The notes under the pieces were generated by a model that was not told the origin of the DNA, did not search any database, and saw only the letters and a program-made list of their open reading frames with translations. Shown one piece after another: positions 5,249 to 64,000 of a stretch of 64,000 bases of DNA. The DNA comes from Eubacteriales bacterium (GTDB lineage: Bacteria; Bacillota; Clostridia; Oscillospirales; CAG-382). The stretch is from contig JAZNPH010000025.1 of the NCBI GenBank assembly GCA_045589515.1, positions 4,034 through 68,033 on the forward strand, written 5' to 3'. A program made the translations under genes and the position numbers. Within the stretch, counting starts at the first letter, position 1. Every line of letters begins with the position of its first letter.

Positions 5249-5251
5249 TGA

Positions 5252-38556: not shown

Positions 38557-38586
38557 TTGGGTTGCCTCCTGTTATTTGATTTGTTT

Positions 38587-39639: not shown

Positions 39640-39641
39640 AA

Positions 39642-40082
39642 TCAGTTACCCTTGGTCAAGGTCAGGGTGTATTCGGTAGCGCCGTATTCCAGATGGATCT
39701 CGGCCTCGCCCTCGTAGGTATACCCCTCAGGGAGCGTCATCACAGACAGTTTATAACCGTCGGTGATCTCAACGTTGAAAACAGCGACGCCGTCCTCGCC
39801 GCTCATAGAGGGCATGCAGGAATCCTTGCAGATCTGCACCATAGCGCCGGAGACGGGATTGCCGTCCTGATCCACTACGGTGACAGAGAACTTGGGAGCT
39901 TCGGGCACAGAGGTCTCGGAAGACTCGTTCTCCACAGCCTCGGAAGAGGTGTTTGCTACGCTCTCCGCAGAAGATTCTGCGGGAGCAGAGGTCTCGTTCT
40001 GCTCGCCGCAAGCCACCAAGCAAAGAAGCATGGTCAGACCCAAGACAAGAGCAAGAAGTCTTTTGGTGAGTTTCATATTCAT
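39642..40082 (-). CDS. Small lipoprotein consisting of an acidic linker plus one carboxypeptidase-regulatory-like beta-sandwich domain
   Basis: It has the lipobox CLVA-CGEQ and a Ser/Glu-rich linker. This is followed by FSVTVVDQDGNPVSGAMVQICKDS....GEDGVAVFNV..GYKLSV..LPEGY, the pattern of CarboxypepD_reg/prealbumin-like folds. Confidence 0.55.
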   Translation of the reverse strand: MNMKLTKRLLALVLGLTMLLCLVACGEQNETSAPAESSAESVANTSSEAVENESSETSVPEAPKFSVTVVDQDGNPVSGAMVQICKDSCMPSMSGEDGVAVFNVEITDGYKLSVMTLPEGYTYEGEAEIHLEYGATEYTLTLTKGN

Positions 40083-40092
40083 TTTCTCCTTT

Positions 40093-40977
40093 TCAGGGAT
40101 TCATTTCTTCGATGCTTTGGTAGGTTCTTTGCACATACTCGTCGGAAGTAACGTAAGCAAACAGACTGGAGAAGGTTTCCGCATCCGTCACAGCGCCGAT
40201 ATGCACCAGACAGATCATTCCATAACGGTCAATGACAACCGTTGTAGGATAAGCTCGGAGATTCATAGCAGTTTGCCAATACAACTCCTCGGAAGCGACG
40301 GGAAATGTCAATCCCATTTGCTCCGCATATGAGGAAACTGTGGCGTCGGTGCCATCGTAAGGATTGATGGCAATGACCTCCAGACTGTCTTTATACTGCA
40401 AATATGCTTGTTCCAGGTAAGGAAATTCCATACGGCAAGGGCCGCAACCGATGAACCAGAAGTTCAGCACGACAGCTTTCCTCTCTTTCAGAAGATCTGC
40501 GATGGAAAGCTGTGTGCCATCGGTACAGGTAACGCTGAGATTGGGAACAATGCTCCCGACACGTAGGGAAAGCGTGGTAAGGTCTTCCACTTCATAAGGA
40601 ACTGCTTGAACGGTGATCGTGGTTTCCGTTCCGGTAACGGGGTAATACGATTCACCGCAATATCCGGGATCTTCCGGATACAGAACCGCAACGTAAGAAT
40701 CGGATAACGGCGCACGGAAAGTGAAATTCCCTTCCCTGTCCGTCATAGCGGCATACACAAGATCGGTGAGGGAAGAATCCTCGTAAACCTTGACCAAAAC
40801 GTCGCCAAACTTCATTCCGCCTTCGGTTTGGAAGGTGAGCGTATAGTCTGCGAAATCGGATTCCTTGGAGGGCGCGGTGCTTTCTTCGAGAGCAGGATCA
40901 CACCCGACAAAGGAAAGGATCGCGATCATCAGCAGCCAAGAAAGTGCTGTGCGTAAATATTTCTTCTTATTCCACAT
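40093..40977 (-). CDS. TlpA/ResA-like thiol-disulfide oxidoreductase lipoprotein (CarboxypepD_reg-like domain plus thioredoxin fold, CGPC)
   Basis: It has the lipobox SFVG-CDP and a beta-sandwich (YTLTFQTEGGMKFGDVLVKVYED...DREGNFTF). The thioredoxin fold reads KAVVLNFWFIGCGPCRMEFPYLEQAY...YPTTVVIDRYG. I verified the CGPC codons at 40435-40446. Confidence 0.8.
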   Translation of the reverse strand: MWNKKKYLRTALSWLLMIAILSFVGCDPALEESTAPSKESDFADYTLTFQTEGGMKFGDVLVKVYEDSSLTDLVYAAMTDREGNFTFRAPLSDSYVAVLYPEDPGYCGESYYPVTGTETTITVQAVPYEVEDLTTLSLRVGSIVPNLSVTCTDGTQLSIADLLKERKAVVLNFWFIGCGPCRMEFPYLEQAYLQYKDSLEVIAINPYDGTDATVSSYAEQMGLTFPVASEELYWQTAMNLRAYPTTVVIDRYGMICLVHIGAVTDAETFSSLFAYVTSDEYVQRTYQSIEEMNP

Positions 40978-42226: not shown

Positions 42227-42241
42227 GGCATTTACCCGTCA

Positions 42242-45025
42242 TCAATCATTGGAGCCCAGATAATCGTAGTAGTAGCAGAGCTTCAACCAGGAATTCTCAA
42301 CACCTGCGAAGGTGTATTTATCCATGAGAAGCTGCAAAATCTCAGCAAGCCGCTGATCTACTACCACGCATCCGTTACGCTCGGTATTTTCGGAATCGTC
42401 AATCTTATCAAGATAGGAACGCACTTCCTCGGTAAGATCCCCGCCCTTGCCGTGGTATCTGCCGGCAAAGACATCCTCCAACTGGTAGTTGATTGCGTTT
42501 TGATCGTACTCATCTCCCCATTTTTCTCTGAGATAAGCATCGGTCTTTTCGATATCGTTATCGTTTTGCTTCAGGTAGGAAAGAATCTCGGCATCGGTCT
42601 CGGATTTACTGAAATCGAAGCCGCCCATCTCGATCATCTCAGTGATAGAGTGGCTGAATACGCTGGTCATAGAGGTGAAATCCGCATAGATCAGACTTCC
42701 GTCCGCAGAATCGTACCAATAACCGTCTTTCAGCTCGGGCTTAATGCCGCCGGTAATGATATCGTACATGGTGTCGCCGGTGGCGTCGCCGTCGTAGGTG
42801 AAGTAACCGGGAGCGGCGGCACGGAAGAGCCAAAGCTCTTCTGCGATATACTCAACGTCGTAGTAAATAACGCCGGTAGCGTAAACATCCCAGAAAGCCA
42901 TATTGATATAGTAGGGCTTGCCGGCTTCCATATAGTAGACCATGGAAACGTTAACGGTATCTGTATACATACGTTCGTCATGCTCGTAGGTATAAATAAT
43001 ATCGCCGTTGCTGTCAAAGATCCAGGAGTCGATGCCGTCTTTGTACTCGCTTCTGGAGGTAAAACGGTATACCCCGGATCTTTCGGGAATAAATTCCGCA
43101 AACATACCTCTGGGAATGATCGCTCTGTCGTAGTAGAAATAGTTGGTCTCGACGCCCTTGCCCAGGGTTGCGTCCAATGCGCTTTCGGGGCAAAGACCGA
43201 TGATGGGATCCTGAAGCTGAGTAGCGGTGGGACCGTATGCCACGAAGTACTTACAGATCTTCAACCATTCGTTTTCGGTGCCGTCGAAGCCTGCCACCTC
43301 GGCAACCTGCTTGAGCATTTCAGCAAGCTCTTTGTTTACGGTGCAAATGCCGTTCAAGGAAGCGTTGGAAGCATAGGAGAAGTACTTCACCATGTTTTTC
43401 CCTTCCTTGTCGTAGAGGCTGACGCCGTCCTTATCTGCCAGACCCTCGTAGACGATCTGGTAAACGGACATTTCCTCGGAGAAGGGAGTGTAGCCCATAA
43501 GGTCTGCCAGAAGAAGGGGGCCGTCCGCCTTGCCTACATGGTAGTAGCCGTCCTTTTCGTTGAAGACGATATCCACATAAGAATAGGTCTCGCCGTCCTC
43601 AGAAGTGCCGGCAGGGCGGGGCAAGTAAGTATCCACGTCGATCTCGGAAGCATCTACAGCGCGGAAATTGTTGATATAAACGGTGTCGTCCCCCTCGGAG
43701 GTGTCGCTATCCTTGACGAAGCAAAGAGCGATCTCGTAGGTGCCATCTTCTTCCGCAACGCAGGGGTAGCAAGACTGCCAGGTCTCGGTCTCTCCTACGC
43801 CGGAGATCTGGAACACGTCCTCGTCGTTGACGATGACGTACAAAATATCGCAAAGGCGCTCGGAGGAGATGAGGTAGTCGAAGCCAACCGCCTGTCCCTT
43901 CTTCAGAGTGACGTCGGCGTAGAGGATGGCGTAGGAGGAATCGATGCCGGTGTTGGAGGCGTAGAGCGCCTTCTTACCGTTCTTTTCCGTAGCGATGAAG
44001 GGCCAGATGTACTGGGCGTTTTCATCCTCGGTCTCGGGACGATAGGTAACTTGGATATCGCCCTTGTTGATGAGAGCAGAAATGTTCTCGGAGGAATCCA
44101 TGGTGTAGTTGGGAACCACCTGAGTCACCAGGTCGCCGATGCCGCCTACACAGACCTTCTGCTTATAAACGTCCGCAAGGAAGTGATCGAAGGCGGACAG
44201 GAAGGGACGCTTGCTGGTAATGGCACCTGCCTCCACTACGCTGATCAGCCCATAACGGTCAATGAACACAGAGGTGGGGTAGCCGGTAACGGAAAAGGTG
44301 TTGGCCCAGGAGGAAGGACAAGCGGCCATGGGAAAATCCAGACCGTGCTCAGCCTTGAAATTCTTAACGGCAGCTTCACCGTCCAGGGGATCCAACGCGA
44401 TGATCTCGATCTGATCCTTGTACTCAGCGTACAACTCGTTCATCAGAGGGAACTCTTCAAGACACCAGGTACAAGTGGTGTACCAGAAGTTCAGGATCAC
44501 CAGCTTTTTGGTCTCCAGAACCTTGGAAAGGGTGAGTTCTTCCCCATCGGAGGTGGTAACGGTGAAATCATACATGATATCGCCCATCCCCAAGGATGCG
44601 GAGGAAAGCTCCTCGTCGGTAACCAAAGAGGAGGTTAGGACGATGCTTGCGGAGGTGCCGGAGAAGCCGTAGTAGCTGTCAACGGAGTAACCCTTTGCAA
44701 CGCCCGTGAGGACAATGGCGTAGTCCTTGCTCTGGGGCAGGGTAAAGGATACGTCGCCGTTTACATCGGTCTTGGCAAAGTCCACCATGTCGGCAAGGGA
44801 ACCGTCTGCGTAGATATATACGTCGGTTTCGGACATTGCCATTCCGCCGGCCGTCTCCACGTGAACGGTATAAGTCGCGGAGCCGCCTGCAGGCGCGCTC
44901 TCCTCGGAGCTTGTGTCGCTGGTGGTTCCGCTGTCATCCGAGCAGGATGCCAACAGAGGGAGACAGATCGCCAAAAGCAGAAGTAAGGCGATCATACCAT
45001 GCTTTCTGTAAGTATTTCTTTTCAT
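42242..45025 (-). CDS. Large modular lipoprotein with TlpA-like thioredoxin fold (CTWC)
   Basis: It has the lipobox LLAS-CSDD and a CarboxypepD_reg-like domain (YTVHVETAGGMAMSETDVYIYADG...DVNGDVSF). The thioredoxin fold reads KLVILNFWYTTCTWCLEEFPLMNELY...GYPTSVFIDRYG, and I verified the CTWC codons at 44462-44473. A jelly-roll-like region and two copies of the shared module follow. Confidence 0.75.
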   Translation of the reverse strand: MKRNTYRKHGMIALLLLLAICLPLLASCSDDSGTTSDTSSEESAPAGGSATYTVHVETAGGMAMSETDVYIYADGSLADMVDFAKTDVNGDVSFTLPQSKDYAIVLTGVAKGYSVDSYYGFSGTSASIVLTSSLVTDEELSSASLGMGDIMYDFTVTTSDGEELTLSKVLETKKLVILNFWYTTCTWCLEEFPLMNELYAEYKDQIEIIALDPLDGEAAVKNFKAEHGLDFPMAACPSSWANTFSVTGYPTSVFIDRYGLISVVEAGAITSKRPFLSAFDHFLADVYKQKVCVGGIGDLVTQVVPNYTMDSSENISALINKGDIQVTYRPETEDENAQYIWPFIATEKNGKKALYASNTGIDSSYAILYADVTLKKGQAVGFDYLISSERLCDILYVIVNDEDVFQISGVGETETWQSCYPCVAEEDGTYEIALCFVKDSDTSEGDDTVYINNFRAVDASEIDVDTYLPRPAGTSEDGETYSYVDIVFNEKDGYYHVGKADGPLLLADLMGYTPFSEEMSVYQIVYEGLADKDGVSLYDKEGKNMVKYFSYASNASLNGICTVNKELAEMLKQVAEVAGFDGTENEWLKICKYFVAYGPTATQLQDPIIGLCPESALDATLGKGVETNYFYYDRAIIPRGMFAEFIPERSGVYRFTSRSEYKDGIDSWIFDSNGDIIYTYEHDERMYTDTVNVSMVYYMEAGKPYYINMAFWDVYATGVIYYDVEYIAEELWLFRAAAPGYFTYDGDATGDTMYDIITGGIKPELKDGYWYDSADGSLIYADFTSMTSVFSHSITEMIEMGGFDFSKSETDAEILSYLKQNDNDIEKTDAYLREKWGDEYDQNAINYQLEDVFAGRYHGKGGDLTEEVRSYLDKIDDSENTERNGCVVVDQRLAEILQLLMDKYTFAGVENSWLKLCYYYDYLGSND

Positions 45026-53485: not shown

Positions 53486-56400
53486 TTACTGTGTGGGAAC
53501 GGGGTCGATGGGATCTTCCTTTTTCAGGACGCCCTGGAGGCAATAGATGGTCAGAACGAACACAGCCACCAGGGAGAAGAGGAGAGCCACTTCCCCGGGG
53601 TTACCCTTGGATGCGGTAGAATCATTGCCGGGAATATCCTCTACGGGAGGCGTCAAGGCCAGAATACGCTGTTCGGCGGATACCAGAACGTCGTAATTGG
53701 TGACCAGTGCCTGCTGTTCCAGGGTCGCGATCTTATCATAAGCAGCACGGGCGGCTTCCACGATAGCCTTATCCTCGTAGGATACCTTCTCAGGAATGGC
53801 GTTGATTGCCTTGATGGCGGCAATGGTCACGTCATCGGGAGCTGCGGGGCCTTGGATGCGGTAGCCGAAGTACTGGTCGCAAATGAAGGAATCGTAGCCG
53901 ACGCCGTTGACGGGGCTGACCATGATCACCTTATTATCCACGTAGCCCACGTAATCCACGAAGTTTGCACCGTAGAAGACGTTGGAGTACTGGCCGCCGG
54001 TGGCGTTCCACATGAAGTAAGGGATCAGACCCATACCGGTGATGGTCACCTCAGTGCCGTCGTAGTCGGTATAATCGCCGTATTCCCCTGCGCCGGGAAC
54101 GTGCTCCAGGGATTCGTAATACGTGGGATCGAACTCCTCTTCCATAATGGGAGCGGTGTAGCTGCCGAAGACCACCAAAGCCAGCTCGTCGCAGGCGTAG
54201 AAGGCCTTGTGGCCGATGGCGATGGTCATATAAGGCATCTTGATGCGCTGTACGTTGCTGCCTGCAAAGGCGTAAGCGGCAATACGTACGGTGTCATCTG
54301 CAACGATCACGTCCTCCGGGGTATAGCCTGCGTAGGTCACAAGCTCCATACCCAAAACGTTCTTGTAGTAAAGAGAGCCATCGATAACGGAAACGGTATC
54401 GCTGATCTCATAGGTGTAGGTAGGCACTTCGTATTCCTTGCCCCCGAAGGTCTCGGTGGTGGTGGATACAAAGGGAGTCAAGGTACACATAGCGAAGGGG
54501 TTATCGCCCAAGGTAGTCAGAGCGTTGCCCAAAGTGACCTTGAAGGGAGTTACCTCTTCCTTGATGAAGGCGTAAGAGCCAAGGGATACCACGCCGGAGA
54601 GATCTGCCTCGGTGAGGGCGATATAAGCAAATGCGTAGTCGCCGATCTCGGTCACGGCGGAGAGGTTCTTCACCTCATCCAACGGATCGCAGTATGCAAA
54701 TGCACCCTCGCCAACGGTGGAGCCGTTGGGATTCAAGGTGACGGATTCCATGAGACGGTTGGAAACGAAGGCGTACTTATCGACCTTGGAAACGGAGGAC
54801 AGATCTACGGATTCCAGGCCGCATTCCATGAAGGCGTATTCGCCGATGGTCTCCACGGACTTCAGATTAATCTTCTTGAGAGCGTCACATCCTGCGAAGG
54901 CGTAGGCGGGGATCTCCTTGATGCCGTCGCCCAGCTTGATCTCTACCATATCGCGGCAGTATGCAAAGGCATATTCGCCGATGCTTGCCGCAGAGGAGAG
55001 ATCCAAGGAAGTGAACTTGGGTCCGTAGTAGGAATAGATGTAATATCCGTCCTTACCTACGGCGGCAACAGTCATGTTGGTATCCATGCAAGCGTAGTAA
55101 ACGTCGCCGGACAGAGCATAGTCGCCGATGGACTTAGCCTTGGAAAGGTCAATGGACTTAAGAGAGCACAGATTGTAGAAGGCCATGTTGCCGATCACAG
55201 CGTTTTTACCCAAAGTGATCTTCTCAAGGCTTGCGGCGTAGGAGAAGGCGTTGTTGCCGATAACTACGTCGTCTCCGATGGTGAGAGAGGTCAGAGCGGA
55301 GGAGAACTTATAACGGAAGTACTTGTCCTCGCCCACATAGAAGCCCTCCACCTCAAAAGCATTATCCTTGTTCAGGCTGAAGGCGTAATCTCCCAGAACT
55401 ACGTTGTCGCCGATGACAACGGTAGCCAGATCCAGACACTCGCTGAAGATCCCTTCCCCTACCGTCATCCCGCTGGGGATGGTAACGGACTGCAGGGAGG
55501 TGTGTGAGAAGGCGTAGTCGCCCATAAAGGCGTCGTTTGCAAAGCCGGGAAGGGTTGTCAGATGAGTCTCGAAGAAGGCGTACGCACCGATGGTGGTAAG
55601 CTTGCCAAGCTTCACAGAAACCAGGTTGGTAGAGGAAGCGAAGCCGTAGTCCGCTACTGCGGTGACCTTTTCCATCACGGCGGAGGTGATCTTCTTGTTG
55701 TGAGACAAAGCACCCTTGCCGACGGTGGTCACGGAAGCGTTGACGTATTCACCGGAAACGTTGGGAGACAGGGCGATAAGGGTCTTTCCGTCGGAGGACA
55801 GAATGTTGTCGGCAGTCTGTGCGCGGTATGCACGGTTGCCGTTTTCCACCAAGAAGGACCCGATCTTGGTCTCGCGGAAGGCGAAGGCGCCGATGTCGTT
55901 CACCTCGGGACCGATGGTAACGGTCTCCATGGCCTTACACTGGTAGAACATACCCTCGGGCAGGACGGCGGAGTTGATGCGGAATTCCTTCAAGGATTCA
56001 CAACCGGTGAAAGCGTATGCACCGTATTTCACCTTATCTGCCTTGACATCTGCGCTTGCAAGCTTCTTACAGCCTGCAAAGGCGTACTGGCCAACGGACT
56101 GCAGAGTGTCCGCCAAAACGATGCCGGACAGGTTCTGGTTTCCTGCAAAGGCGTAGTCGGAGATCACGCAGATGGCATCCAGCGCAAGAGTTCCGCGGAG
56201 GTCGCAGTTCTCGAAAGCGTTCTGGTTGATGATCTTCAGGTTGTTATCACCGCTGAAAGTGATCTTCTTAAGAGAAGTGCAATTGTAGAACGCGCCGTAG
56301 TCGATGGCCTCCAGGGTGGAGGGGAACACGATCTCTTCAAGAGCGGTCAGGTTTGCGAAGGCATAGGAATTGATCTTTTCCACGCCCTCGGGGACGACCA

Positions 56401-59400
56401 CCTTGGTGATAGTGTTGTCACCAATGAACCATGCCTTGGAATTTTCGGCATCGTCAAAGGCAAGCTCTTCCTCCGTCTTCATGATGTATTCGAAGTTGGA
56501 GAAGGCAAACTGGCCGATCTCGGTAAGGGCAAGCTTTGCGGGAATGTCTACCAAGCCGCCGTTGCCGTAATAGTGAGTCAAGCTGGAGCCTGTTTTGATG
56601 TAGGGATCCTTGACCTCTACGGAAACGGTTTCGGAGTAGTAGGTGCTCTTCCCTTCCTGCATGACCTTGACGGTAACGGAAGCGAAGCCTTCCGCAACGG
56701 CGGTAACGATGCCGCTTTGGTCGATCTTGACGATCTTTTCGTTGCTGGATTCGAATTCCACGGTGGTGTCGCCGGGATAATAAGCATCCAGAGAATACTG
56801 CAGCAGAACGGACTCGGAGGGATACATTGCAAGGTTGAAGTTGCCTTCAAAGAAACGGACGTTACCGGTATCGCCGATGTCCTTATCCTCGTTCACCACA
56901 ACATAGTAGGCCTTCAGAGTCTGATAGCCGTCCAGGGTGAATACATCCACAACGGGCTTGTCGTATCTCTCGTAGCCCTCGTCTCCTTCCTTCAATACGG
57001 TGACCTTGAAGGTGACGCTTTCGTTGGTGTTGGGGTCCTGAGCCTTGATGATGGCGTTACCGGAGGAAACAGCCACCAGCTTATTATTTACCACGCGGAC
57101 AACACTGGGCTTGGAGGAGGAGTAGTGGAGCAGCTCGCCCCACTGGGTATAGGGATACACGATGGGCTCCAAAGTGTAAACCTCGTTGGGGCTGAGGGTG
57201 AGACCGTCCTCCAGGCTTTCGAAATAGAACTCGGTGAAGTCGTCGGGAAGAGGGATCTCGAAGGTTGCGGTGTTCAGCGCATAGTCGTAAACACTGACAA
57301 CGAAGCTGTTCTTATTGGTTGCGTTATGCTTAATGTCAAAGAGGTAATCCGTCAGCTCGAAGGTCACACGGGTGGTGCTGTTCTTCTTGGAGTATACGGG
57401 AGTCATATACTGCTCGAAGGACTTCATTTCGGGAGTGGGATTGCCGTTTTCGTCCTGACCCGTGGTGACATAGCCAAGCTGTGCGCTCATGGCGTAGTGG
57501 TTGTCGTAGATCAGCACGTCGGCGTAGAGACGGTTCTTCTTCAAGGTCTTGTCGTACTCGTAGTAATACTCTACGTCGGTAACGGTGGGAGCCTGGAAGT
57601 CGATGGTCAGAGGGAATTCAAAGACGTTGTTCTTATTGGTATCCAGGGCACCGTCGCCGTAATCCAGATATCCGGTGAGGGTGACGATGAACTGAGTGTT
57701 ATTGGCAAAGTTATAATTTGCGGTATCGAACTCTATCTCAATATTAGAGGGGTAGATGGAAGGTCCGCCGTCGCTGTAGGACTTACGCACCATATCGTCC
57801 ACACAGGTGAAGACCACTTCCCCGGTGGTGGCGTTGGAGATGGCCACTTCGATACGTTCGGCGTTACGAAGCATACCTGCCCAGACAAAGCGCAGGGAGT
57901 GGATGGTGCCGTCCTTATTGGAAAGGGCGATGTACTGCTCGTTGGCGGCGATCACCATGTCCTTGGGATCCTGCAGGAAATAGTAGGAGCCCAGGTAGCT
58001 GACGTAGTCCTCGCTGACACCGCCGACGGGACGGGTAGCGTAGGCGTCTGCCATGGTCTTGTCTTCAAAGTCGATGCCGTCATCCAGCTCGTCTGCGTTG
58101 GTATCGTAATAGGTCAGATCGAAGAGAGGCGCAACGGTCCAGTCACCGTAGAAGGCAAGGTAGGGAACGTTCAGGTCATATTCGGTGCCTGAGGTAGCGG
58201 TGAGGGTGATGTAGCCCTCCACATACATACCGTTTTCAAAAGATTTGTTCAGATAAGCTTTATCCGCATCGGACAGGGTGACGGTGACGGTGACGTCCAG
58301 GCTATCGCCGCCGTAAACGGTAACGGTGTTCCCCTGAAGGTGGCCGCCATTATTGTCCTTGGAGGTGACGGTAACGGTAGCACCGTCCAGAATGTAAGAT
58401 TCCTCGGTAACGGTGGTCTTACCTGCGCCGGTCTTGGTGTCGCTGACTCCCTCGGTCATTACGTAGGCGCCAAGGTCGTAGGAAACGGTTGCATCGCCGA
58501 AGTTGTTAATGGTGAAGGTCATCTCGTAGACGCCGGTCTTGGAGGGGTCGTCCCCAAGCTCCAGCTTGGCCTTGTCCATCAGGTTGCCGTTCTTGTCCAG
58601 GGTGGTGATGTAGGCAGGGGTGTTCAAAGCGTTGGAAAGGCTACCCAGACCTGCGCCCTGCTTACGAACGGAATAAGGAAGGCCGTTTTTGCCAAGGGCG
58701 ATGTCTGCGGTGGACATGAGAAGTCCGTTGACCATGGCATTGACCTTGTTGTTATCGTTTGCGATCTCGGGGAAATTCTCCACCACATACTGACGGAGAA
58801 GAACTACCACGCCTGCCAGGTTGGGGCAAGCCATGGAGGTGCCGGAAAGACGGTCGTACCCGCCGCCGGTAACAGAGGACAGGATGCTACCGCCGTGAGC
58901 GGTGATCTCGGGCTTAATGCGGAGATCGGGAGTGGGGCCCCAGGAGGAGAAGTCGGAGATAAAGGGACCGGAGGTCTGGGAACGGCTGATCAACAGCTTG
59001 CCACTACCCACAGCCGCCAGCATTTCGCCGTCGTCCTGGGAGATGGAACACACCGCAAGGGTGGTCTCACCCACGTTCATTTTGATATCGCCGGACACAT
59101 TATTATATATGATGATACCTGCCGCGCCCTGTTCCTGGGCGATGATGGCTTTTTCCTCGAAGGTGTTGGAACCGCGGCGTACCAGGGCGATCTTGCCCTT
59201 CACGTCCATACCGGTATAGTCGGCGGATCTACCCACGCCGGGGATGAGGACGAATTCCAGCTCGGCGGAATCCTTGTCTCCCAAAAGGGTATCGAAGAAG
59301 TTATTCTCTTCACTGGAGGAATTAACGGATTCGGTGAAGTACACGATGGTCTCGCCATATTTGATGTAAGGAGTCTCCACGCCGCTGATGGAAGCAACGG

Positions 59401-60673
59401 AAAGAACGCCCTCGTAGGTGGAGGGAGAACCAACCGTGCCGGTATCGGGGTTGGAAGTCAGACCCAGGTTACCGTTGGCTTCGGAGCCTTGAGAGGAGCT
59501 GTAGCTGTTGGAGGCGGCGACTACCATGCTGATGCCCGCCTTACGGATCTTTTCGTAGATGCCGTTGACAGCCTCTTCATCGGTCTCGCGGGAGAAGCCG
59601 CAGGCGGTACCGATGGACATATTGATCACGTCCACGCCCAAGACTACACAGTCCTCAAGAGCGGCCATAACCCATGCGGTTCTGGTGGTATCCATCACGT
59701 CGGAGAAGATCTTCATGGAAACCAACTGTGCGTTGGGTGCAACGCCGCGGATGGTATCGTCGTTACCCACGATAACGCCGGATACGTGAGTACCGTGGTT
59801 ATTATGGGTGGAATATACGTCGGAGTCGTTGTCGGCATAGTCAAAGCCGAAGGGAACCTTTTCGTTGATGTATACGTCGTCTACAGTAATACCCTTCAAG
59901 AGGTCGTAAGCGGTGGTCTTCTCCACAAGAGACGCCACTTCGTCATAAGTCAAGCCCAGATGAGTAGAGGTAAAGTTATCGGGAGAGAAAGCGGTATGCT
60001 TAGAGTCGAGACCGGTGTCCAGAACGGCAACAACCATGCCGCTGCCGTCGTAGCCCGCATCGGAGCTGTCAAAGATACCCGTATCAAAAACGTCCACTTC
60101 GTTTTCCACCAGCTGGGTCTCTGCGGCATTATATACCTCGCCGACAATGACACCTCTGCCTTCCCCCAAGGCGCTGCAGGTGGTAGCAAAATCCCCGGCT
60201 CTGATCAAAAGCTCAAAGCCACTGACAACGGTAGAGTATTCCTCGCCCAAACGGTAGGAAACGCCCTTCTTCTCCAGATTGGAGAGAACCTGAGATTTCT
60301 CCGCGGCAATGGAGGCTCTGATGCCCTTGGCATCCTCGCTCTCCGTGATGTATTCGGCAAAGCTCATGGTCTTACCGGAGCGTTCATAAGCGTCCATCAT
60401 GCTGATGGTGTCCACGGTGACGATCACAGAGATCTCCTCGCTGTCCTTGATGCCGGAGGGCAAGGGGAACATGACGGAGTTATTCAAATACTTCTGGTAA
60501 TCCAAGGACAATCCTTCCAGCTGCTTAATGGAATAGGGATTATCGACCTTGGCGGAGGTAAGGAGTTCGGTCAAATTCAAAATAGGCGCGACCAAAGTCC
60601 CCGCCAACAGGACGGGCACCAGCAAGGCCGCAAGGCTATTCTTCCATCTTTTTGAGAAAATTCTTCTGTTCAT
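53486..60673 (-). CDS. Giant membrane-anchored subtilisin-family (S8) cell-envelope protease with PA insert, Ig-like (Big_2-type) domains and a BspA-type leucine-rich-repeat region of about 800 aa
   Basis: The start at the ATG 60671-60673 (MNRRIFSKRWK..., RBS AGAGG) gives 2,395 aa. The triad motifs are VAVLDTG (Asp, 60017-60019), HGTHVSG and SGTSMACP (Ser, 58835-58837). A PA-like insert lies between them (GKIALVRRG..F.EK...A...GA.G.IIYN). Big_2-like segments span about 56606-57214. Repeated ...IG.YAF..C..L..I.L... units span about 54152-56569. The C-terminal TM helix ALLFSLVAVFVLTIYCLQGVL lies at 53528-53596, and there is no LPXTG. Confidence 0.85.
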   Translation of the reverse strand: MNRRIFSKRWKNSLAALLVPVLLAGTLVAPILNLTELLTSAKVDNPYSIKQLEGLSLDYQKYLNNSVMFPLPSGIKDSEEISVIVTVDTISMMDAYERSGKTMSFAEYITESEDAKGIRASIAAEKSQVLSNLEKKGVSYRLGEEYSTVVSGFELLIRAGDFATTCSALGEGRGVIVGEVYNAAETQLVENEVDVFDTGIFDSSDAGYDGSGMVVAVLDTGLDSKHTAFSPDNFTSTHLGLTYDEVASLVEKTTAYDLLKGITVDDVYINEKVPFGFDYADNDSDVYSTHNNHGTHVSGVIVGNDDTIRGVAPNAQLVSMKIFSDVMDTTRTAWVMAALEDCVVLGVDVINMSIGTACGFSRETDEEAVNGIYEKIRKAGISMVVAASNSYSSSQGSEANGNLGLTSNPDTGTVGSPSTYEGVLSVASISGVETPYIKYGETIVYFTESVNSSSEENNFFDTLLGDKDSAELEFVLIPGVGRSADYTGMDVKGKIALVRRGSNTFEEKAIIAQEQGAAGIIIYNNVSGDIKMNVGETTLAVCSISQDDGEMLAAVGSGKLLISRSQTSGPFISDFSSWGPTPDLRIKPEITAHGGSILSSVTGGGYDRLSGTSMACPNLAGVVVLLRQYVVENFPEIANDNNKVNAMVNGLLMSTADIALGKNGLPYSVRKQGAGLGSLSNALNTPAYITTLDKNGNLMDKAKLELGDDPSKTGVYEMTFTINNFGDATVSYDLGAYVMTEGVSDTKTGAGKTTVTEESYILDGATVTVTSKDNNGGHLQGNTVTVYGGDSLDVTVTVTLSDADKAYLNKSFENGMYVEGYITLTATSGTEYDLNVPYLAFYGDWTVAPLFDLTYYDTNADELDDGIDFEDKTMADAYATRPVGGVSEDYVSYLGSYYFLQDPKDMVIAANEQYIALSNKDGTIHSLRFVWAGMLRNAERIEVAISNATTGEVVFTCVDDMVRKSYSDGGPSIYPSNIEIEFDTANYNFANNTQFIVTLTGYLDYGDGALDTNKNNVFEFPLTIDFQAPTVTDVEYYYEYDKTLKKNRLYADVLIYDNHYAMSAQLGYVTTGQDENGNPTPEMKSFEQYMTPVYSKKNSTTRVTFELTDYLFDIKHNATNKNSFVVSVYDYALNTATFEIPLPDDFTEFYFESLEDGLTLSPNEVYTLEPIVYPYTQWGELLHYSSSKPSVVRVVNNKLVAVSSGNAIIKAQDPNTNESVTFKVTVLKEGDEGYERYDKPVVDVFTLDGYQTLKAYYVVVNEDKDIGDTGNVRFFEGNFNLAMYPSESVLLQYSLDAYYPGDTTVEFESSNEKIVKIDQSGIVTAVAEGFASVTVKVMQEGKSTYYSETVSVEVKDPYIKTGSSLTHYYGNGGLVDIPAKLALTEIGQFAFSNFEYIMKTEEELAFDDAENSKAWFIGDNTITKVVVPEGVEKINSYAFANLTALEEIVFPSTLEAIDYGAFYNCTSLKKITFSGDNNLKIINQNAFENCDLRGTLALDAICVISDYAFAGNQNLSGIVLADTLQSVGQYAFAGCKKLASADVKADKVKYGAYAFTGCESLKEFRINSAVLPEGMFYQCKAMETVTIGPEVNDIGAFAFRETKIGSFLVENGNRAYRAQTADNILSSDGKTLIALSPNVSGEYVNASVTTVGKGALSHNKKITSAVMEKVTAVADYGFASSTNLVSVKLGKLTTIGAYAFFETHLTTLPGFANDAFMGDYAFSHTSLQSVTIPSGMTVGEGIFSECLDLATVVIGDNVVLGDYAFSLNKDNAFEVEGFYVGEDKYFRYKFSSALTSLTIGDDVVIGNNAFSYAASLEKITLGKNAVIGNMAFYNLCSLKSIDLSKAKSIGDYALSGDVYYACMDTNMTVAAVGKDGYYIYSYYGPKFTSLDLSSAASIGEYAFAYCRDMVEIKLGDGIKEIPAYAFAGCDALKKINLKSVETIGEYAFMECGLESVDLSSVSKVDKYAFVSNRLMESVTLNPNGSTVGEGAFAYCDPLDEVKNLSAVTEIGDYAFAYIALTEADLSGVVSLGSYAFIKEEVTPFKVTLGNALTTLGDNPFAMCTLTPFVSTTTETFGGKEYEVPTYTYEISDTVSVIDGSLYYKNVLGMELVTYAGYTPEDVIVADDTVRIAAYAFAGSNVQRIKMPYMTIAIGHKAFYACDELALVVFGSYTAPIMEEEFDPTYYESLEHVPGAGEYGDYTDYDGTEVTITGMGLIPYFMWNATGGQYSNVFYGANFVDYVGYVDNKVIMVSPVNGVGYDSFICDQYFGYRIQGPAAPDDVTIAAIKAINAIPEKVSYEDKAIVEAARAAYDKIATLEQQALVTNYDVLVSAEQRILALTPPVEDIPGNDSTASKGNPGEVALLFSLVAVFVLTIYCLQGVLKKEDPIDPVPTQ

Positions 60674-60811
60674 CGGGACCTCTTTTCTGATTTGGGCATA
60701 ATACGACACATACATATTCATTATATATTACAATATTTTTTCAAAAAAAGCAATAGCATTATCACATTTTTTTGATATTTAATTTTTTGTTCATCTTTTT
60801 TCGTCAAAACA

Positions 60812-60840
60812 TTTACTTTCGCGAGAACTTGTGGTATACT
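60812..60840 (+). promoter_or_regulatory. Sigma-A promoter with extended -10 for the CxxC-membrane-protein / polyferredoxin-thioredoxin operon
   Basis: TTTACT (60812-60817), a 17-nt spacer, then TGG-TATACT (the hexamer is 60835-60840, with TG at -15/-14). It lies inside the AT-rich divergent region and invalidates the GTG 60831 start of the listed ORF. Confidence 0.5.
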
Positions 60841-60872: not shown

Positions 60873-61619
60873 ATGACCCAAAAAACGCTGAAAATCATCC
60901 ACCGTATCTACGGTACAACCCTTTCCCTCTCCCTGTTTTTGGCAGGTATATGCCTGATGGCGGGGTGCATTTCCATATACAACGGAGGAGATCCCTTGTA
61001 TTCCCGCGATATGGTGGCGGAGACCTTTTCCGCTGTCGCCGTTCCCGTTTGTATCTTCCCCATTTTGGCGGTGCTTGGTTTCTTTTTGCCCGGCAATCGC
61101 GCGGTCAAGGGAGGCAAACGTTCCGTCCCCGGCGGGATGATTCTGGGAAAAGATCTTTCCGGCTGCGACGAGGCCACCCTCTCCGCCATCAAGGACGAAC
61201 AGACCGGGCGTAAGGTCAGAAGCATCTTTTTGCTGGGTCTTTCCGTTCTTTGCGGTACTGTCTTCCTTGGTTACGCTTTGGCCACCGCTCACAGCGAAGG
61301 GGTTTCTATCAACGATTACGTCATTAACTGTATGCGTGTGATGGTTCCCTGCTTGCTGGTTCCCTTCGGCTTTGGGCTCTATGCTTCCATGTGGAGTGAC
61401 AAGAGCCTTGCCCGTCAATGGGAGCTGGTGAAGAAATGTCCTGCCGCGAAGGGAGAGGAATCTACGTTTTGCCGGGCGGAAAAACGTCGGATGTTCATTC
61501 TGGCATCCTTGACGGTGGTTGCCGTGGCACTGATTATCATCGGCAGATGTATGGACGGCGCGGCGGACGTATTGACCAAGGCCATCAATATTTGCACCGA
61601 ATGTATCGGCTTGGGTTAA
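60873..61619 (+). CDS. Five-TM membrane protein ending in an extracytoplasmic CxxC tail (…INICTECIGLG)
   Basis: The ATG at 60873 has the RBS GGGAG 8 nt upstream. There are five hydrophobic helices with Lys/Arg-rich loops after TM2 and TM4, which places the C-tail outside by the positive-inside rule. I verified the CTEC codons at 61593-61604. The stop lies 12 nt before the next gene. Confidence 0.6.
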   Translation: MTQKTLKIIHRIYGTTLSLSLFLAGICLMAGCISIYNGGDPLYSRDMVAETFSAVAVPVCIFPILAVLGFFLPGNRAVKGGKRSVPGGMILGKDLSGCDEATLSAIKDEQTGRKVRSIFLLGLSVLCGTVFLGYALATAHSEGVSINDYVINCMRVMVPCLLVPFGFGLYASMWSDKSLARQWELVKKCPAAKGEESTFCRAEKRRMFILASLTVVAVALIIIGRCMDGAADVLTKAINICTECIGLG

Positions 61620-61631
61620 AAGGAGCAGACG

Positions 61632-63128
61632 ATGAAAACTTTTTTTGCAAAACTGAAAAAGCTGGTTCCTTCCAAGCGGAAGCTGATCCAATTGTATTTC
61701 GCATTGCTGTTCAACGCAAACGCAAAGGGGTTTGCAGAGGGTAAGATCTTCAGAGGAAGCTCCAAGTCTCTGTGCATTCCCGGATTGAACTGCTATTCCT
61801 GCCCCGGTGCGGTGGGCGCTTGCCCATTGGGATCCCTGCAAGGCTCCTTTGCCGCAGGAAAGAGCACCGTCTTCTACGTATTTGGCATTCTCATGCTCTT
61901 TGGGCTGGCGCTGGGCAGAACCATCTGCGGTTGGCTGTGTCCCTTCGGGTTGATCCAGGAGCTTCTCTATAAGATCAAGACACCAAAGCTGAAGAAAAGC
62001 CGTGTAACTCGTTTGCTTTCTTACTTAAAGTACGTGATCCTGGCTTTCTTCGTGTTCCTGGTGCCGATTCTTTACGCATTCAAGGACACGCCGTTACCTG
62101 CCTTCTGCAAGTACATTTGTCCGGCCGGAACCTTAGAGGGCGGCATCAGCTTGCTTTCCAACAAGCTGAACGAAAGCTATTTCGCTATGCTGGGCCCGCT
62201 GTTTACCTGGAAGTTCTTGCTTTTGGTAAGCTTTGTGGTAGGCTGTGTTTTTGTGTTCCGTTTATTCTGTCGTTTCTTCTGCCCCCTGGGGGCGCTTTAC
62301 GGCTTCTTCAACCGCATTTCCTTTATCGGGGTTCAGGTGGAAGCACCCAAGTGTACCAACTGCGATCTTTGCGTTCACAAGTGTAAAATGGACGTGAAAA
62401 AGGTGGGAGATGCGGAGTGTATCTCCTGCGGAGAATGCATAGACGTTTGTCCCACGAAGGCCATCTCCTGGAAGGGGTTTCCCAAAAAGAAAACCTCCCT
62501 TGCGGAGGACGCTTCGGGAGGCAGCAAGAAAAAGGCCAAATTCATCACCCGCTGTATTTCCGCGGTGTTGATGATCGCGCTGTTGGCAGGAGTATTCGTA
62601 TACGCATGGAACGATACGGGGGACGCATCTTCCGAAATATCCTCCGATGCCTCATCCGAAGAAAGCTCCTCCGTTCCTATTGGGAATCGGGTAGGCGAGA
62701 AGTGCTATCAAGGTACTTTGTCCGCGGTGGATGCCGCGGGAATCAAGGAAGAGACTCTGGACGTGATCGCCGAAGGAAAGATCACCGTGATCAACTTCTG
62801 GGGCACCTGGTGCACTCCTTGCGTCAACGAGCTTCCTTATTTCGACCGCATTGCAACGGAGTACGAGGATTCCGTTTCCGTGGTTGCGATTCACACCAAC
62901 ATGGTGGTGAATACCGCCGGCGGCTACATTGCACAGCATTATCCCGAGAGCAACATCAGATTTGCCTGCGACGGCGAGGGTGAGTCATACTACAACACCT
63001 TGGGCGGCAGAGGGACCTATCCCTATACCGTGGTGGTTGACAAAGATGGTGTGATCGCCGCTGTGTTCGTGCAAGCATTGGAGTATGAGGATCTGCAGGA
63101 GATTGTAGAAAAGCTTCTGGCTGATTAA
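61632..63128 (+). CDS. NapH/MauN-like membrane polyferredoxin (2x[4Fe-4S]) fused via an additional TM helix to a TlpA-like thioredoxin domain (WCTPC)
   Basis: The RBS is AAGGAG. The membrane core has the CxxCP-type motifs NCYSCPGAVGACPLG, GWLCPFG, CKYICPAG and FFCPLG. The ferredoxin motifs are CTNCDLCVHKC (62352-62384) and CISCGECIDVCP (62418-62453). A Lys-rich segment precedes the TM helix FITRCISAVLMIALLAGVFVYAW (62544-62609) and an acidic Ser-rich linker. The thioredoxin fold reads ITVINFWGTWCTPCVNELPYF, with the CTPC codons at 62811-62822. Confidence 0.8.
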   Translation: MKTFFAKLKKLVPSKRKLIQLYFALLFNANAKGFAEGKIFRGSSKSLCIPGLNCYSCPGAVGACPLGSLQGSFAAGKSTVFYVFGILMLFGLALGRTICGWLCPFGLIQELLYKIKTPKLKKSRVTRLLSYLKYVILAFFVFLVPILYAFKDTPLPAFCKYICPAGTLEGGISLLSNKLNESYFAMLGPLFTWKFLLLVSFVVGCVFVFRLFCRFFCPLGALYGFFNRISFIGVQVEAPKCTNCDLCVHKCKMDVKKVGDAECISCGECIDVCPTKAISWKGFPKKKTSLAEDASGGSKKKAKFITRCISAVLMIALLAGVFVYAWNDTGDASSEISSDASSEESSSVPIGNRVGEKCYQGTLSAVDAAGIKEETLDVIAEGKITVINFWGTWCTPCVNELPYFDRIATEYEDSVSVVAIHTNMVVNTAGGYIAQHYPESNIRFACDGEGESYYNTLGGRGTYPYTVVVDKDGVIAAVFVQALEYEDLQEIVEKLLAD

Positions 63129-63151: not shown

Positions 63152-64000
63152 ATGAGACACAAAAGAGACGGCGCGGCATCCTTGATTCTGCTGTGTTGGT
63201 TAGTTTACGCTTGCTCTTATTTGGGGAAGCTGAATTATGCGGCCAATATCACCCCCATCATGGCACATTACGGCGTGAACCATGCCCAGGCGGGATTGGT
63301 GAGCAGTTATTTTTCCGTGACCTACGCCATCGGACAGGTGGTGAATGGGATCTTCTGCAGACGGTATCCCTTGAAGCAGGTGGTTTTCGGTGCTTTGGTG
63401 GTTTCCGCAACCATCAATCTCGCCGTTGCGTTTGCTCCCGCTTTTTGGATGATCCGTTTTCTGTGGATGGTGAACGGGTTTGCCACTTCCCTGCTATGGC
63501 CCTGCCTTGTAAGACTACTTTCCGAGACCTTGGACAAAAAGGATCTGGGTAAAGCGGTGATTGCCATGGGGACCACAACGGCGTCAGGCACCTTTGCCAT
63601 TTACGGCATAAGCGCGGGGTTTGCGTTGTTTGACGGTTTTAAGTGGGTGTTCGTTCTCGCGGCGGCGGTGGTTCTGTCGGTTGCGGTATATTGGTTATGG
63701 GTTGCAGATAAGAAGATCGGCGGCGTTGTCAGAACGGAAGAAGCGGAAACTCCCCTTGTGAAAAAGCAAGAGCGGGTCTCACCGGGGAAAGCACTTTTCA
63801 TCTGTGTCGGGATGTTGGCCCTTTACGGCGTGTTCACCAATCTGGTGAAGGATGGACTTTCCGGGTGGGTGCCTTCCATTTTGAAGGAAGAATACGGACT
63901 GGGAGATTCCCTTTCCATTCTTCTGACCCTGACATTGCCTATGGTATCCATGTTCGGTAGTGCCCTCTCTGTGCGGGCACAGAAACGGATCCCGGATTTT
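63152..64000 (+). CDS. MFS transporter, N-terminal part; the gene runs off the right edge
   Basis: My own translation from the ATG at 63152 has no stop up to position 64000. It reads MRHKRDGAASLILLCWLVYACSYLGKLNYAANITPIMAHYGVNHAQAGLVSSYFSVTYAIGQVVNGIFCRRYPLKQVVFGALVV.... This gives successive TM helices and an MFS-like loop motif, resembling the organophosphate/sugar-phosphate antiporter type. It is absent from the ORF track because it is open-ended. Confidence 0.65.
   Translation, partial: MRHKRDGAASLILLCWLVYACSYLGKLNYAANITPIMAHYGVNHAQAGLVSSYFSVTYAIGQVVNGIFCRRYPLKQVVFGALVVSATINLAVAFAPAFWMIRFLWMVNGFATSLLWPCLVRLLSETLDKKDLGKAVIAMGTTTASGTFAIYGISAGFALFDGFKWVFVLAAAVVLSVAVYWLWVADKKIGGVVRTEEAETPLVKKQERVSPGKALFICVGMLALYGVFTNLVKDGLSGWVPSILKEEYGLGDSLSILLTLTLPMVSMFGSALSVRAQKRIPDF

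Follow-up and report, generated by a model that had tools for sequence, protein, structure and literature searches.

Oxidised surface proteins are repaired by extracytoplasmic thioredoxins, which also take part in the maturation of cytochromes and spores and in virulence; the CcdA/DsbD thiol relay is the textbook route by which they are kept reduced. NapH-like proteins are one of five classes of transmembrane electron carrier distinguished in a survey by Meheust et al. (2021, eLife), and they are typically fused to an extracytosolic domain that binds flavin mononucleotide (FMN) (PMC8238504). Because these proteins have been proposed as modular carriers to extracytosolic FMN domains, they provide a precedent for an outward conduit; thioredoxin-like proteins were treated in that survey only as clients of DsbD, and a system combining a NapH-like protein with a thioredoxin was not reported (PMC8238504). 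Here, we describe such a combination in a 64,000-nucleotide stretch of DNA from an Eubacteriales bacterium (assembly GCA_045589515.1, contig JAZNPH010000025.1, positions 4,034 to 68,033), referred to below as the window. Gene 1 of the pair encodes a membrane protein with five transmembrane (TM) helices and a CXXC motif at its C-terminus, and gene 2 encodes a NapH-like iron-sulfur (Fe-S) membrane protein fused to a thioredoxin domain. We propose, with a probability of roughly 0.6, that the two products form a membrane complex that would move cytoplasmic electrons outward in the form of a dithiol, that is, a ferredoxin- or NAD(P)H-dependent transmembrane thioredoxin reductase that has no homology to CcdA/DsbD.

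A first reading of the DNA, made from its letters and open reading frames (ORFs) without database searches (hereafter the sequence-only reading), had marked out both genes, the upstream one encoding a 5-TM protein ending in ICTECIGLG, and both ORFs were found as it described them. The stop codon of gene 1 lies 12 nt before the start of gene 2 in the same reading frame (window 61617-61634), and since the spacing in relatives varies between -56 and +16 nt, there is no sign of programmed read-through. Pfam matches to gene 2 comprise two Fer4_5 units, Fer4 dicluster families, and the Redoxin, AhpC-TSA, and Thioredoxin families. The combined Pfam and NCBIfam scan thus bore out the Fer4_5 and Redoxin domains that had been anticipated, and it placed the CXXC-tail protein in NF040920. 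With at least 7997 homologues of gene 2 at E ≤ 1e-10 and 417 full-length homologues of gene 1, a chance pair of ORFs is far from likely.

An alignment of 100 homologues contains 20 invariant cysteines in gene 2, of which 10 are in the membrane core, 8 in the ferredoxin domain, and 2 in the thioredoxin domain. Those of the core fall into one block, C48, C54, C57, and C64 (C-x5-C-x2-CP-x5-CP), and three C-x3-CP motifs (C99/C103, C159/C163, and C213/C217), and an additional cysteine just ahead of the thioredoxin domain, C358, is kept in at least 90% of homologues. The sequence-only reading had listed a NapH/MauN-like core, two 4Fe-4S motifs, and four CxxCP motifs; the core (with its two Fer4_5 units) and the 4Fe-4S motifs stand, and the four CxxCP motifs are replaced by the block and the three C-x3-CP motifs above. 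The Lys-rich stretch, extra TM helix (residues 298-327 in the structural model), acidic Ser-rich linker, and WCTPC site that it described further along the chain are all present. In architecture the protein corresponds to NapH, with a four-TM module, two C-x3-CP motifs (CGWLCP and CRFFCP), and two C-terminal [4Fe-4S] motifs, whereas its family scores remain below the respective cut-offs for NapH/MauN (TIGR02163, 85.0 vs. 213.05 bits; PRK09477, 62.2 vs. 234) and NosR (31 vs. 1000).

The thioredoxin domain exceeds the Pfam gathering cut-offs for Redoxin (PF08534, 43.5 vs. 26.6) and AhpC-TSA (PF00578, 37.9 vs. 26). Its WCTPC cysteines (C394/C397) are invariant, and its best sequence match in the PDB is ResA (4nmu, E 5e-12). 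In a first AlphaFold2 (AF2) run, based on an alignment of 100 close homologues, the domain was modelled with a predicted local distance difference test (pLDDT) score above 90, and a Foldseek search with this part returned 4nmu, ResA, CcmG, DsbE, Etrx1/2, DsbF, and TlpA with target-normalised TM-scores of 0.74-0.87. The model has the thioredoxin fold together with the insertion typical of ResA and CcmG. The active site follows the pattern WC[TSG]PC..E.P of reducing ResA, TlpA, CcmG, and thioredoxin, and we take the Trp, the cis-side Pro, and the Glu (cf. Glu80 of ResA) in WCTPCVNELP to be marks of the reducing ResA/TlpA class. The modelled domain therefore matches the reducing ResA/CcmG/Etrx class. 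It fails the equivalog cut-offs of the individual families, namely ResA (51.2 vs. 170), StoA (41.6 vs. 210), TlpA (37.2 vs. 230), and DsbE (36.5 vs. 123). Gene 2 thus resembles both NapH/MauN and ResA and is a member of neither, because it scores 85 bits against a cut-off of 213 for the former and 51 bits against 170 for the latter. A peroxiredoxin reading of the AhpC-TSA match was rejected, because the WCxPC site is that of thioredoxin and TlpA and the structural search led to ResA, CcmG, and Etrx. Many homologues of gene 2 (640-790 aa) carry two nearly identical thioredoxin domains in tandem after TM5 (e.g., P0004, P0013, and P0015), and some of these also bear N-terminal membrane extensions.

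The membrane core was set aside in the first AF2 run, which gave pLDDT values below 50 over all of the Cys motifs. A second run on the 300-residue core with a diverse alignment (model m50163aba916d, window 61632-62531) reached a mean pLDDT of 93.6 and a predicted TM-score (pTM) of 0.87. In this model, a short first helix (residues 15-27) is followed by short membrane helices at 77-94, 132-149, and 189-207, and each Cys-Pro motif sits on a small helix of its own. A Foldseek search of the core model against the PDB (to April 2026) left its membrane part unmatched, and the only matches were 60-70-residue 2x[4Fe-4S] ferredoxin domains at E > 0.2. Sequence and profile searches of the PDB with gene 2 likewise matched its thioredoxin and ferredoxin parts and gave no template for the membrane core. 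As the PDB fold and profile searches recovered only the ferredoxin domain in the core region, the NapH/NosR/PceC-type Fer4_5 membrane module appears to be without an experimental structure.

Gene 1, whose start is preceded by GGGAG, encodes five hydrophobic segments and ends in ...DVLTKAINICTECIGLG. The number of Lys and Arg residues per loop alternates (3/1/9/0/9/1), and under the positive-inside rule this predicts a cytoplasmic N-terminus and a position outside the membrane for the last 22 residues, so that the CXXC tail would lie at the outer face. Residues 213-248 align with positions 3-38 of the 38-position model NF040920 (“CD1871A family CXXC motif-containing protein”) at 36.2 bits, above the cut-off of 32; this is the family of small CXXC-tail proteins encoded beside 4Fe-4S proteins to which the sequence-only reading had tentatively alluded. 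Members of that family are single-pass proteins of ~40-50 aa, and gene 1 does not share this size. Judged from its sequence, gene 1 is a long-form member at the domain level, since it has 248 aa, 5 TM helices, and an N-terminal 4-TM part that is kept in the 417 homologues. Of the conserved cysteines in the N-terminal domain, C32 occurs in all homologues and C27 and C160 in at least 90% of them. The body of the protein falls to 35-40% identity while the tail, D-V-L-T-K-A-x-N-I-C-T-E-C-I-G-L-G, is essentially unchanged.

In public annotation, ~800 nt of conserved sequence encoding the 5-TM protein are missed in long-form homologues of gene 1, and only the last 40-45 residues are called (e.g., 5165-6138 of the closest relative's locus, L081; P0241, P0242, and P0253). 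These 40-45-residue calls are made by PGAP, and some such fragments are named “thioredoxin” in older NCBI records. Short database matches to the tail (P0241 and others) were accordingly rejected as true short forms: they are the C-terminal ends of long-form genes that had been called incompletely. The C-terminal multi-TM extension of P0318-type cores was also rejected as a homologue of the gene 1 N-terminal domain (hhalign probability 2.6%).

The association of the two genes was examined in a scan of one genome per species, which yielded at least 549 loci with a gene 2 relative, and the best 80 of these (52-87% identity) were kept. The fused form therefore occurs in at least 549 species-level genomes, and the system features prominently in metagenomes from the human and ruminant gut; the closest relative, at 87% identity, is a metagenome-assembled genome from Oscillospiraceae. 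A CXXC-tail gene lies directly upstream on the same strand in 80/80 fused-type loci, with the C-terminal pattern ...C-T/S/R/M-E-C-[IV]-G-[LM]-G in every case and a gap of mostly 4-16 nt or an overlap. Nearly all of these upstream ORFs are full-length 5-TM homologues of gene 1, and four are shorter 3-TM forms. No natural fusion of CXXC tail and core was found among the best 120 of the 417 gene 1 homologues or among the N-terminally extended core matches that were retrieved. The N-terminal extensions on some cores were considered as CXXC-tail proteins and rejected as unrelated. The in-frame read-through product of genes 1 and 2 was likewise rejected as a stand-in for the complex, since it would join a tail predicted outside to a gene 2 N-terminus predicted inside.

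More distant relatives were recovered by searching residues 1-300 of gene 2 against 1.84 billion representative proteins, which yielded 424 clusters at E ≤ 1e-30 and 2356 clusters (50% identity) at E ≤ 1e-10. Above ~55% identity to the core, the matches are mostly proteins of 500-730 aa that carry one thioredoxin domain or two in tandem. At 40-50% identity, they are mostly cores of ~290 aa that keep all 18 core and ferredoxin cysteines and are not fused to thioredoxin. A metagenome scan seeded with such unfused cores gave 80 loci, and in 71 of the 77 that could be analysed, a short peptide of 44-60 aa ending in ...KAxxxC[LM]EC[IV]GIG is encoded directly upstream of the core; these short CXXC peptides have K/R on their N side. 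In 73/80 loci, the peptide is preceded or the core followed by an adjacent same-strand ORF for a separate CxPC thioredoxin, usually with a lipobox, whose motif may be CSPC, CNPC, CGPC, CKPC, or CTPC. Locus L083, for example, encodes a thioredoxin lipoprotein (200 aa, WCTWC), a 46-aa peptide ending in CLECIGIG, and the core in this order, and L165 has the same order with an additional C-terminal membrane domain on the core, while L084 encodes a 44-aa CLECIGIG peptide, the core, and then the thioredoxin lipoprotein. The triad is also found together in the cultured Peptoclostridium acidaminophilum DSM 3953 (L166), but there an MFS gene on the opposite strand splits the TlpA gene from the pair. 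RefSeq labels the three products of this organism “TlpA disulfide reductase family protein”, “CD1871A family CXXC motif-containing protein” (45 aa), and “4Fe-4S binding protein”.

The three components thus occur in three arrangements (fused, thioredoxin upstream, and thioredoxin downstream) across orders of Clostridia, which constitutes Rosetta-stone evidence of joint function. One could argue instead that the genes are uncoupled neighbours that share only their ancestry, the fusion being a lineage-specific accident, since the gut Clostridia that contribute the 80 fused-type loci are related and could have inherited their synteny. However, the triad recurs in the three arrangements at 40-50% core identity, in Oscillospirales and Peptostreptococcales and with differing flanks, and the tail of gene 1 stays invariant while the rest of the protein diverges. 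Because distant lineages hold rearranged yet complete triads, inherited synteny is strongly disfavoured, and we regard it as very improbable.

The predicted orientation of gene 2 in the membrane places the Fe-S domain in the cytoplasm and the thioredoxin domain outside. It is drawn from charge statistics: the mean net charge over 100 homologues is +6.4 for loop 95-131 and +4.3 for the ferredoxin domain, about 0 for loop 150-188, -4.0 for the linker, and -15.6 for the thioredoxin domain. An N-in four-helix topology was reportedly established experimentally for E. coli NapH by Brondijk et al. in 2004, and the prediction for gene 2 fits it. The predicted topology also agrees with the 4-TM, CX3CP module common to NapH, NosR, and RdhC (PMC5928378).

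A possible source of the electrons is suggested by P0378 (789 aa; 3308-5677 of L084), in which a GltD-like NAD(P)H/FAD/Fe-S module (Fer4_20 and Pyr_redox_2) is fused to the N-terminus of the core, and whose neighbours are still the CXXC peptide and the thioredoxin lipoprotein. This fusion argues for a cytoplasmic N-terminus of the core and suggests a low-potential cytoplasmic electron donor. Alternatively, the core could be a quinol-linked module of the NapH type that exchanges electrons with the menaquinone pool, as has been suggested for NapH, NosR, and PceC, in which case the thioredoxin would be reduced by quinol or oxidised by quinone and the Fe-S domain would dock a maturation partner, as with NapF and NapH. 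NapH/MauN is indeed the best NCBIfam relative of gene 2, and the common 4-TM/CX3CP module has been termed a putative quinol-oxidising domain (PMC5928378; PMC8238504). However, the NapH score is far under the family cut-off, and the NAD(P)H/FAD-module fusion indicates a cytoplasmic rather than a quinone partner. No napG, napA, mau, nos, or rdh genes were found among the scanned ORFs of the window or among the recurrent neighbour clusters in a survey of 160 related loci, in which most neighbours were grouped by BLAST only, without a domain scan. Moreover, menaquinol (~-75 mV) is a poor reductant for dithiols of the TlpA/thioredoxin type, and many Oscillospiraceae-type Clostridia are not known to have quinones. 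A quinol-linked module is therefore quite unlikely.

The direction of flow could in principle also be reversed. A disulfide-forming machine like DsbB or VKOR would use the thioredoxin domain to oxidise secreted proteins and pass the electrons through the cysteines and Fe-S clusters to a cytoplasmic acceptor. The 4-TM core with one extra TM helix and an outside thioredoxin domain does parallel bacterial VKOR-thioredoxin fusions, and a giant secreted protease that is a conserved neighbour (see below), along with many lipoproteins, might need disulfides. On the other hand, the active site is WC[TSG]PC with a ResA-type Glu in a domain of the ResA/CcmG/Etrx fold class, not a CPHC/DsbA-like site, and no similarity to DsbB or VKOR was detected by Pfam or in the PDB fold search. 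Furthermore, outward flow would be the downhill direction, given the low potential of ferredoxin-type [4Fe-4S] clusters and of an NAD(P)H module as partners. Net oxidation by this system is consequently improbable in our view.

The unfused triads differ from the fused form of the window in part of their surroundings. Across loci L085-L164, an OmpR-type response regulator is encoded near 41 and a histidine kinase near 37, either after the core (e.g., L087) or divergently upstream (L088-L103), and a few loci have an FtsX-type ABC permease and ATPase; the fused form of the window has no such neighbours. These two-component genes suggest an inducible module related to envelope stress or resistance. 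They are also what might be expected of a metal or small-molecule reductase resembling CcoG, a Fer4_5 cupric reductase that works with TlpA or Sco, in which the thioredoxin and the CXXC tail would serve in metal handling or detoxification; the C-terminal CxEC-GxG tail could itself bind metal, and gene 2 has a weak match to CcoG/RdxA/FixG (TIGR02745, 33.3 bits). That score, however, is far under the cut-off of 316.7, and no copper-chaperone, Sco, or oxidase genes were found nearby, either in the window or at the related loci. The CxPC thioredoxin that forms the constant partner is, moreover, a hallmark of protein disulfide reduction. A role in metal or small-molecule reduction is thus unlikely.

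For the transmembrane thioredoxin reductase that we favour, the path of electrons may be envisaged as follows. Reduced ferredoxin or an NAD(P)H-dependent flavoprotein like that fused in P0378 would reduce the 2x[4Fe-4S] domain of gene 2, from which electrons would pass to the inner ends of TM2 and TM4, where four C-x3-CP cysteines would lie on the cytoplasmic side. They would then cross the bundle of short (18-19-residue) helices to the six conserved cysteines of two non-cytoplasmic loops, be taken up at the outer face by the C-x-E-C tail of the CD1871A-type partner, and finally arrive at the WCTPC disulfide of the fused ResA/TlpA-like domain. This tethered domain might in turn reduce thioredoxins that are secreted or lipoproteins, or further surface proteins that have become oxidised. 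In one version of this mechanism, (a), the membrane cysteines would bind further Fe-S clusters and the tail disulfide would sit beside the last of these, in the manner of ferredoxin-thioredoxin reductase (FTR); in another, (b), they would relay electrons through a cascade of disulfides that the ferredoxin clusters prime. In favour of (a), every motif ends in Cys-Pro, like the last ligand of ferredoxin clusters. The sequence-only reading had inferred a functional unit in which Fe-S clusters are wired directly to an external dithiol. The unit is strongly supported by the comparative linkage (80/80, 71/77, and 73/80), the P0378 fusion, and the reducing class of the thioredoxin fold, and the direct wire becomes one option with a cysteine relay as the alternative, following the NosR/PceC literature (PMC5928378).

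Several observations weigh against the proposed reductase, or at least against a particular version of it. The net charge of +2.1 in loop 28-76 leaves it ambiguous on which side the N-terminal Cys block lies, and the fusion to an NAD(P)H module is known from one representative only. We know of no route by which Fe-S clusters could be inserted outside the cytoplasm into a Sec-inserted Gram-positive membrane protein, which would be a difficulty if the outer cysteines bind Fe-S and which favours version (b). The same version is favoured by NosR, for which only 8 Fe per protein were reported, speaking against Fe-S clusters at the CX3CP motifs, and by the preference of the PceC authors for dithiols, although the NosR/PceC literature as a whole leaves the role of these motifs open (PMC5928378). 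Linkage to the thioredoxin lipoproteins described below is limited to ~30% of fused-type loci. Finally, a literature search on CD1871A, on PF12801 together with thioredoxin, and on NapH-like proteins together with thioredoxin found no functional study, as the earlier reading had supposed for such a pair. The combinations with thioredoxin led only to the survey by Meheust et al., and two C. difficile papers that name CD1871 or CD18710 were set aside because they deal with unrelated matters.

The coordinates of the pair and of its neighbours are listed in Table 1. The sequence-only reading had placed the pair head-to-head with an operon for two thioredoxin lipoproteins. The gene that is actually head-to-head is that of a 2411-aa S8 subtilase; both lipoproteins are real, but their genes are 16-20 kb distant, at the far end of this array of minus-strand genes. 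The giant subtilase has six BspA-type LRR blocks and heads an array in the window that includes a lipoprotein and an Opp-type peptide ABC transporter, and it is the divergent neighbour in 64/80 fused-type loci. In 17 of the 57 fused-type loci with enough flanking sequence (flanks of ~6 kb), the fusion gene has homologues of the 294-aa and 927-aa thioredoxin lipoproteins within 6 kb, so the claimed linkage to extracellular thioredoxin genes fails as direct adjacency in the window and holds in part elsewhere. It is the other half of the expected gene neighbourhood, the linkage to CXXC-tail genes, that was recovered almost throughout (80/80 fused-type and 71/77 unfused loci).

Table 1. Features of the gene pair and its surroundings; positions are counted from the first nucleotide of the window.
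Feature	Position	Strand	Basis
Gene 1, 248-aa 5-TM membrane protein, long form of CD1871A family	60873..61619	+	ORF; N-terminal 4-TM domain and CD1871A module; 417 homologues
CD1871A module: last TM helix, short amphipathic helix, and tail KAxNICTECIGLG-COOH, predicted outside membrane	61509..61616	+	NF040920, 36.2 bits vs. cut-off 32
Promoter-like site TTTACT-17-TATACT with TG	60812..60840	+	Consensus match only; 151-nt AT-rich divergent intergenic region; region count no higher than shuffles
Gene 2, 498-aa fusion protein	61632..63128	+	ORF; Pfam/NCBIfam matches; homologue alignment
Gene 2 ribosome-binding site AAGGAG, 6 nt before ATG	61620..61625	+	Sequence
NapH-like (Fer4_5) membrane core, aa 1-230, 10 invariant Cys	61632..62321	+	Two Pfam Fer4_5 matches; AF2 pLDDT 93.6; no PDB neighbour
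2x[4Fe-4S] ferredoxin domain (CxxCxxCxxxC and CxxCxxCxxxCP), predicted cytoplasmic	62322..62486	+	Pfam, alignment, charge
Lys-rich stop-transfer stretch and extra TM helix 5	62487..62612	+	AF2 helix 298-327; charge
Acidic Ser-rich linker, nearly invariant Cys358 directly after	62613..62696	+	Alignment; net charge -4.0
ResA/TlpA-type thioredoxin domain, active site WCTPCVNELP, predicted extracytoplasmic	62697..63125	+	Pfam Redoxin 43.5 bits; net charge -15.6
MFS transporter gene	63152..64000	+	23 nt downstream of gene 2
S8 subtilase/PA/Fn3/Big_2/BspA-LRR surface protein, 2411 aa, divergent neighbour	53486..60721	-	Domain scan; not demonstrably part of system
Redoxin-type lipoprotein, 294 aa (FIGCGPC), candidate client or relay	40093..40977	-	Lipobox, CGPC; homologues adjoin fusion gene in other genomes
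Lipoprotein, 927 aa, with N-terminal Redoxin domain (CTWC), candidate client or relay	42242..45025	-	Lipobox; homologues adjoin fusion gene in other genomes

The two thioredoxin lipoproteins belong to a six-gene array of secreted proteins and lipoproteins (window 36373-45025, minus strand), which encodes the 927-aa thioredoxin, 419-aa Ig-like, 294-aa Redoxin, 146-aa, and 350-aa lipoproteins and a 727-aa dockerin protein; the same array lies convergently beside the fusion gene in other genomes. On the other side of the pair, no terminator-like site was found in the 23-nt gap between gene 2 and the MFS gene. An MFS gene stands beside the pair in the window, in the closest relative (7654-8877 of L081), and in Peptoclostridium acidaminophilum (3423-4646 of L166), and it is absent from most other loci. 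A YabQ spore protein is also encoded in the window and, taken with the closest relatives, assigns the organism to the spore-forming Oscillospirales of the gut. The DsbD/CcdA domain (PF02683) was matched neither in gene 1 or gene 2 nor in the other Pfam-scanned ORFs of the window, which included the multi-TM ORFs judged to be real genes; this agrees with the earlier statement that no ccdA/dsbD-like gene is present there, and the 64-kb window is silent on the rest of the genome.

Beyond the pair itself, we tentatively suggest, with less confidence than for the complex as such, that the triad may represent an unrecognised class of transmembrane thioredoxin reductase. Such an enzyme would take electrons from ferredoxin or NAD(P)H through Fe-S clusters, reduce the outer-face C-x-E-C-x-G-x-G disulfide by means of a membrane-embedded cluster, and, in the lineage of the window, pass the reducing equivalents by way of large thioredoxin lipoproteins to disulfides of extracellular proteins, which the adjacent giant subtilase would then digest and the Opp transporter import. 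The last part of this scheme, in which extracellular disulfides would be reduced ahead of proteolysis and Opp-mediated uptake, is speculative. If the triad does work in this manner, it would provide a second and mechanistically different route for supplying extracytoplasmic thioredoxins, one in which strict anaerobes would use Fe-S clusters to draw on their ferredoxin or NAD(P)H pool, and it would explain how many gut Clostridia power extracellular redox chemistry. It would also offer a simple read-out for the Fer4_5 module of NapH, NosR, and PceC, namely the redox state of the tethered thioredoxin, and would assign a role to the widespread CD1871A family of micro-proteins.

As far as can be judged from the sequences and the literature, the system and its function have not been described before, and its parts appear to be annotated only generically. 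What is new here is a NapH-like redox module with a thioredoxin acceptor, extra cysteine sites, and an obligatory micro-protein subunit, which parallels CcdA/DsbD without homology to it. Gene 2 shares with NapH, NosR, and RdhC (PceC) the four-helix module whose cytoplasmic helix ends carry two C-x3-CP motifs (PMC8238504; PMC5928378), with NapH and NosR the C-terminal cytoplasmic 2x[4Fe-4S] domain, and with the NapH-like modules the proposed modular link between an internal electron pool and an extracytosolic redox domain. It differs from NapH and NosR in scoring well under both family cut-offs (85 vs. 213 and 31 vs. 1000). Unlike NapH, NosR, and RdhC, it has six more invariant cysteines in two loops that are predicted to be non-cytoplasmic, its putative acceptor is a thioredoxin domain rather than an FMN-binding domain or NapG, it has the CXXC-tail micro-protein as an obligatory partner, and it shows no linkage to nap, nos, or rdh genes or to ApbE.

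The likeness to CcdA, DsbD, and ScsB lies in the proposed task, in which outside thioredoxins of the ResA/TlpA/CcmG/Etrx type would be kept reduced by cytoplasmic reducing power, and the layering of DsbD, from a membrane part through a tethered thioredoxin-like relay to clients, is similar as well. Nevertheless, the pair has no sequence or domain similarity to CcdA/DsbD (no match to PF02683), its proposed input is Fe-S fed by ferredoxin or NAD(P)H instead of cytoplasmic thioredoxin, and the two membrane cysteines of CcdA compare with 18 conserved cysteines and two ferredoxin motifs in gene 2. By analogy only, FTR and HdrB also convert one-electron Fe-S chemistry into two-electron disulfide reduction beside a cluster, and thioredoxin is the final acceptor of FTR. 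FTR, however, is soluble and without detected homology to the pair, in which the conversion would take place within or across the membrane and the cluster-adjacent disulfide is putative. Bacterial VKOR-thioredoxin fusions resemble gene 2 in that a single chain joins a 4-TM redox core, through one further TM helix, to an extracytoplasmic thioredoxin-like domain, but VKOR is quinone-dependent and oxidising, no homology was detected, and the active site of gene 2 is of the reducing class. Lastly, the last 36 residues of gene 1 pass the model of the CD1871A family (NF040920), a name that RefSeq gives to 45-aa neighbours of “4Fe-4S binding protein” genes, whereas the module here forms the end of a 248-aa 5-TM protein.

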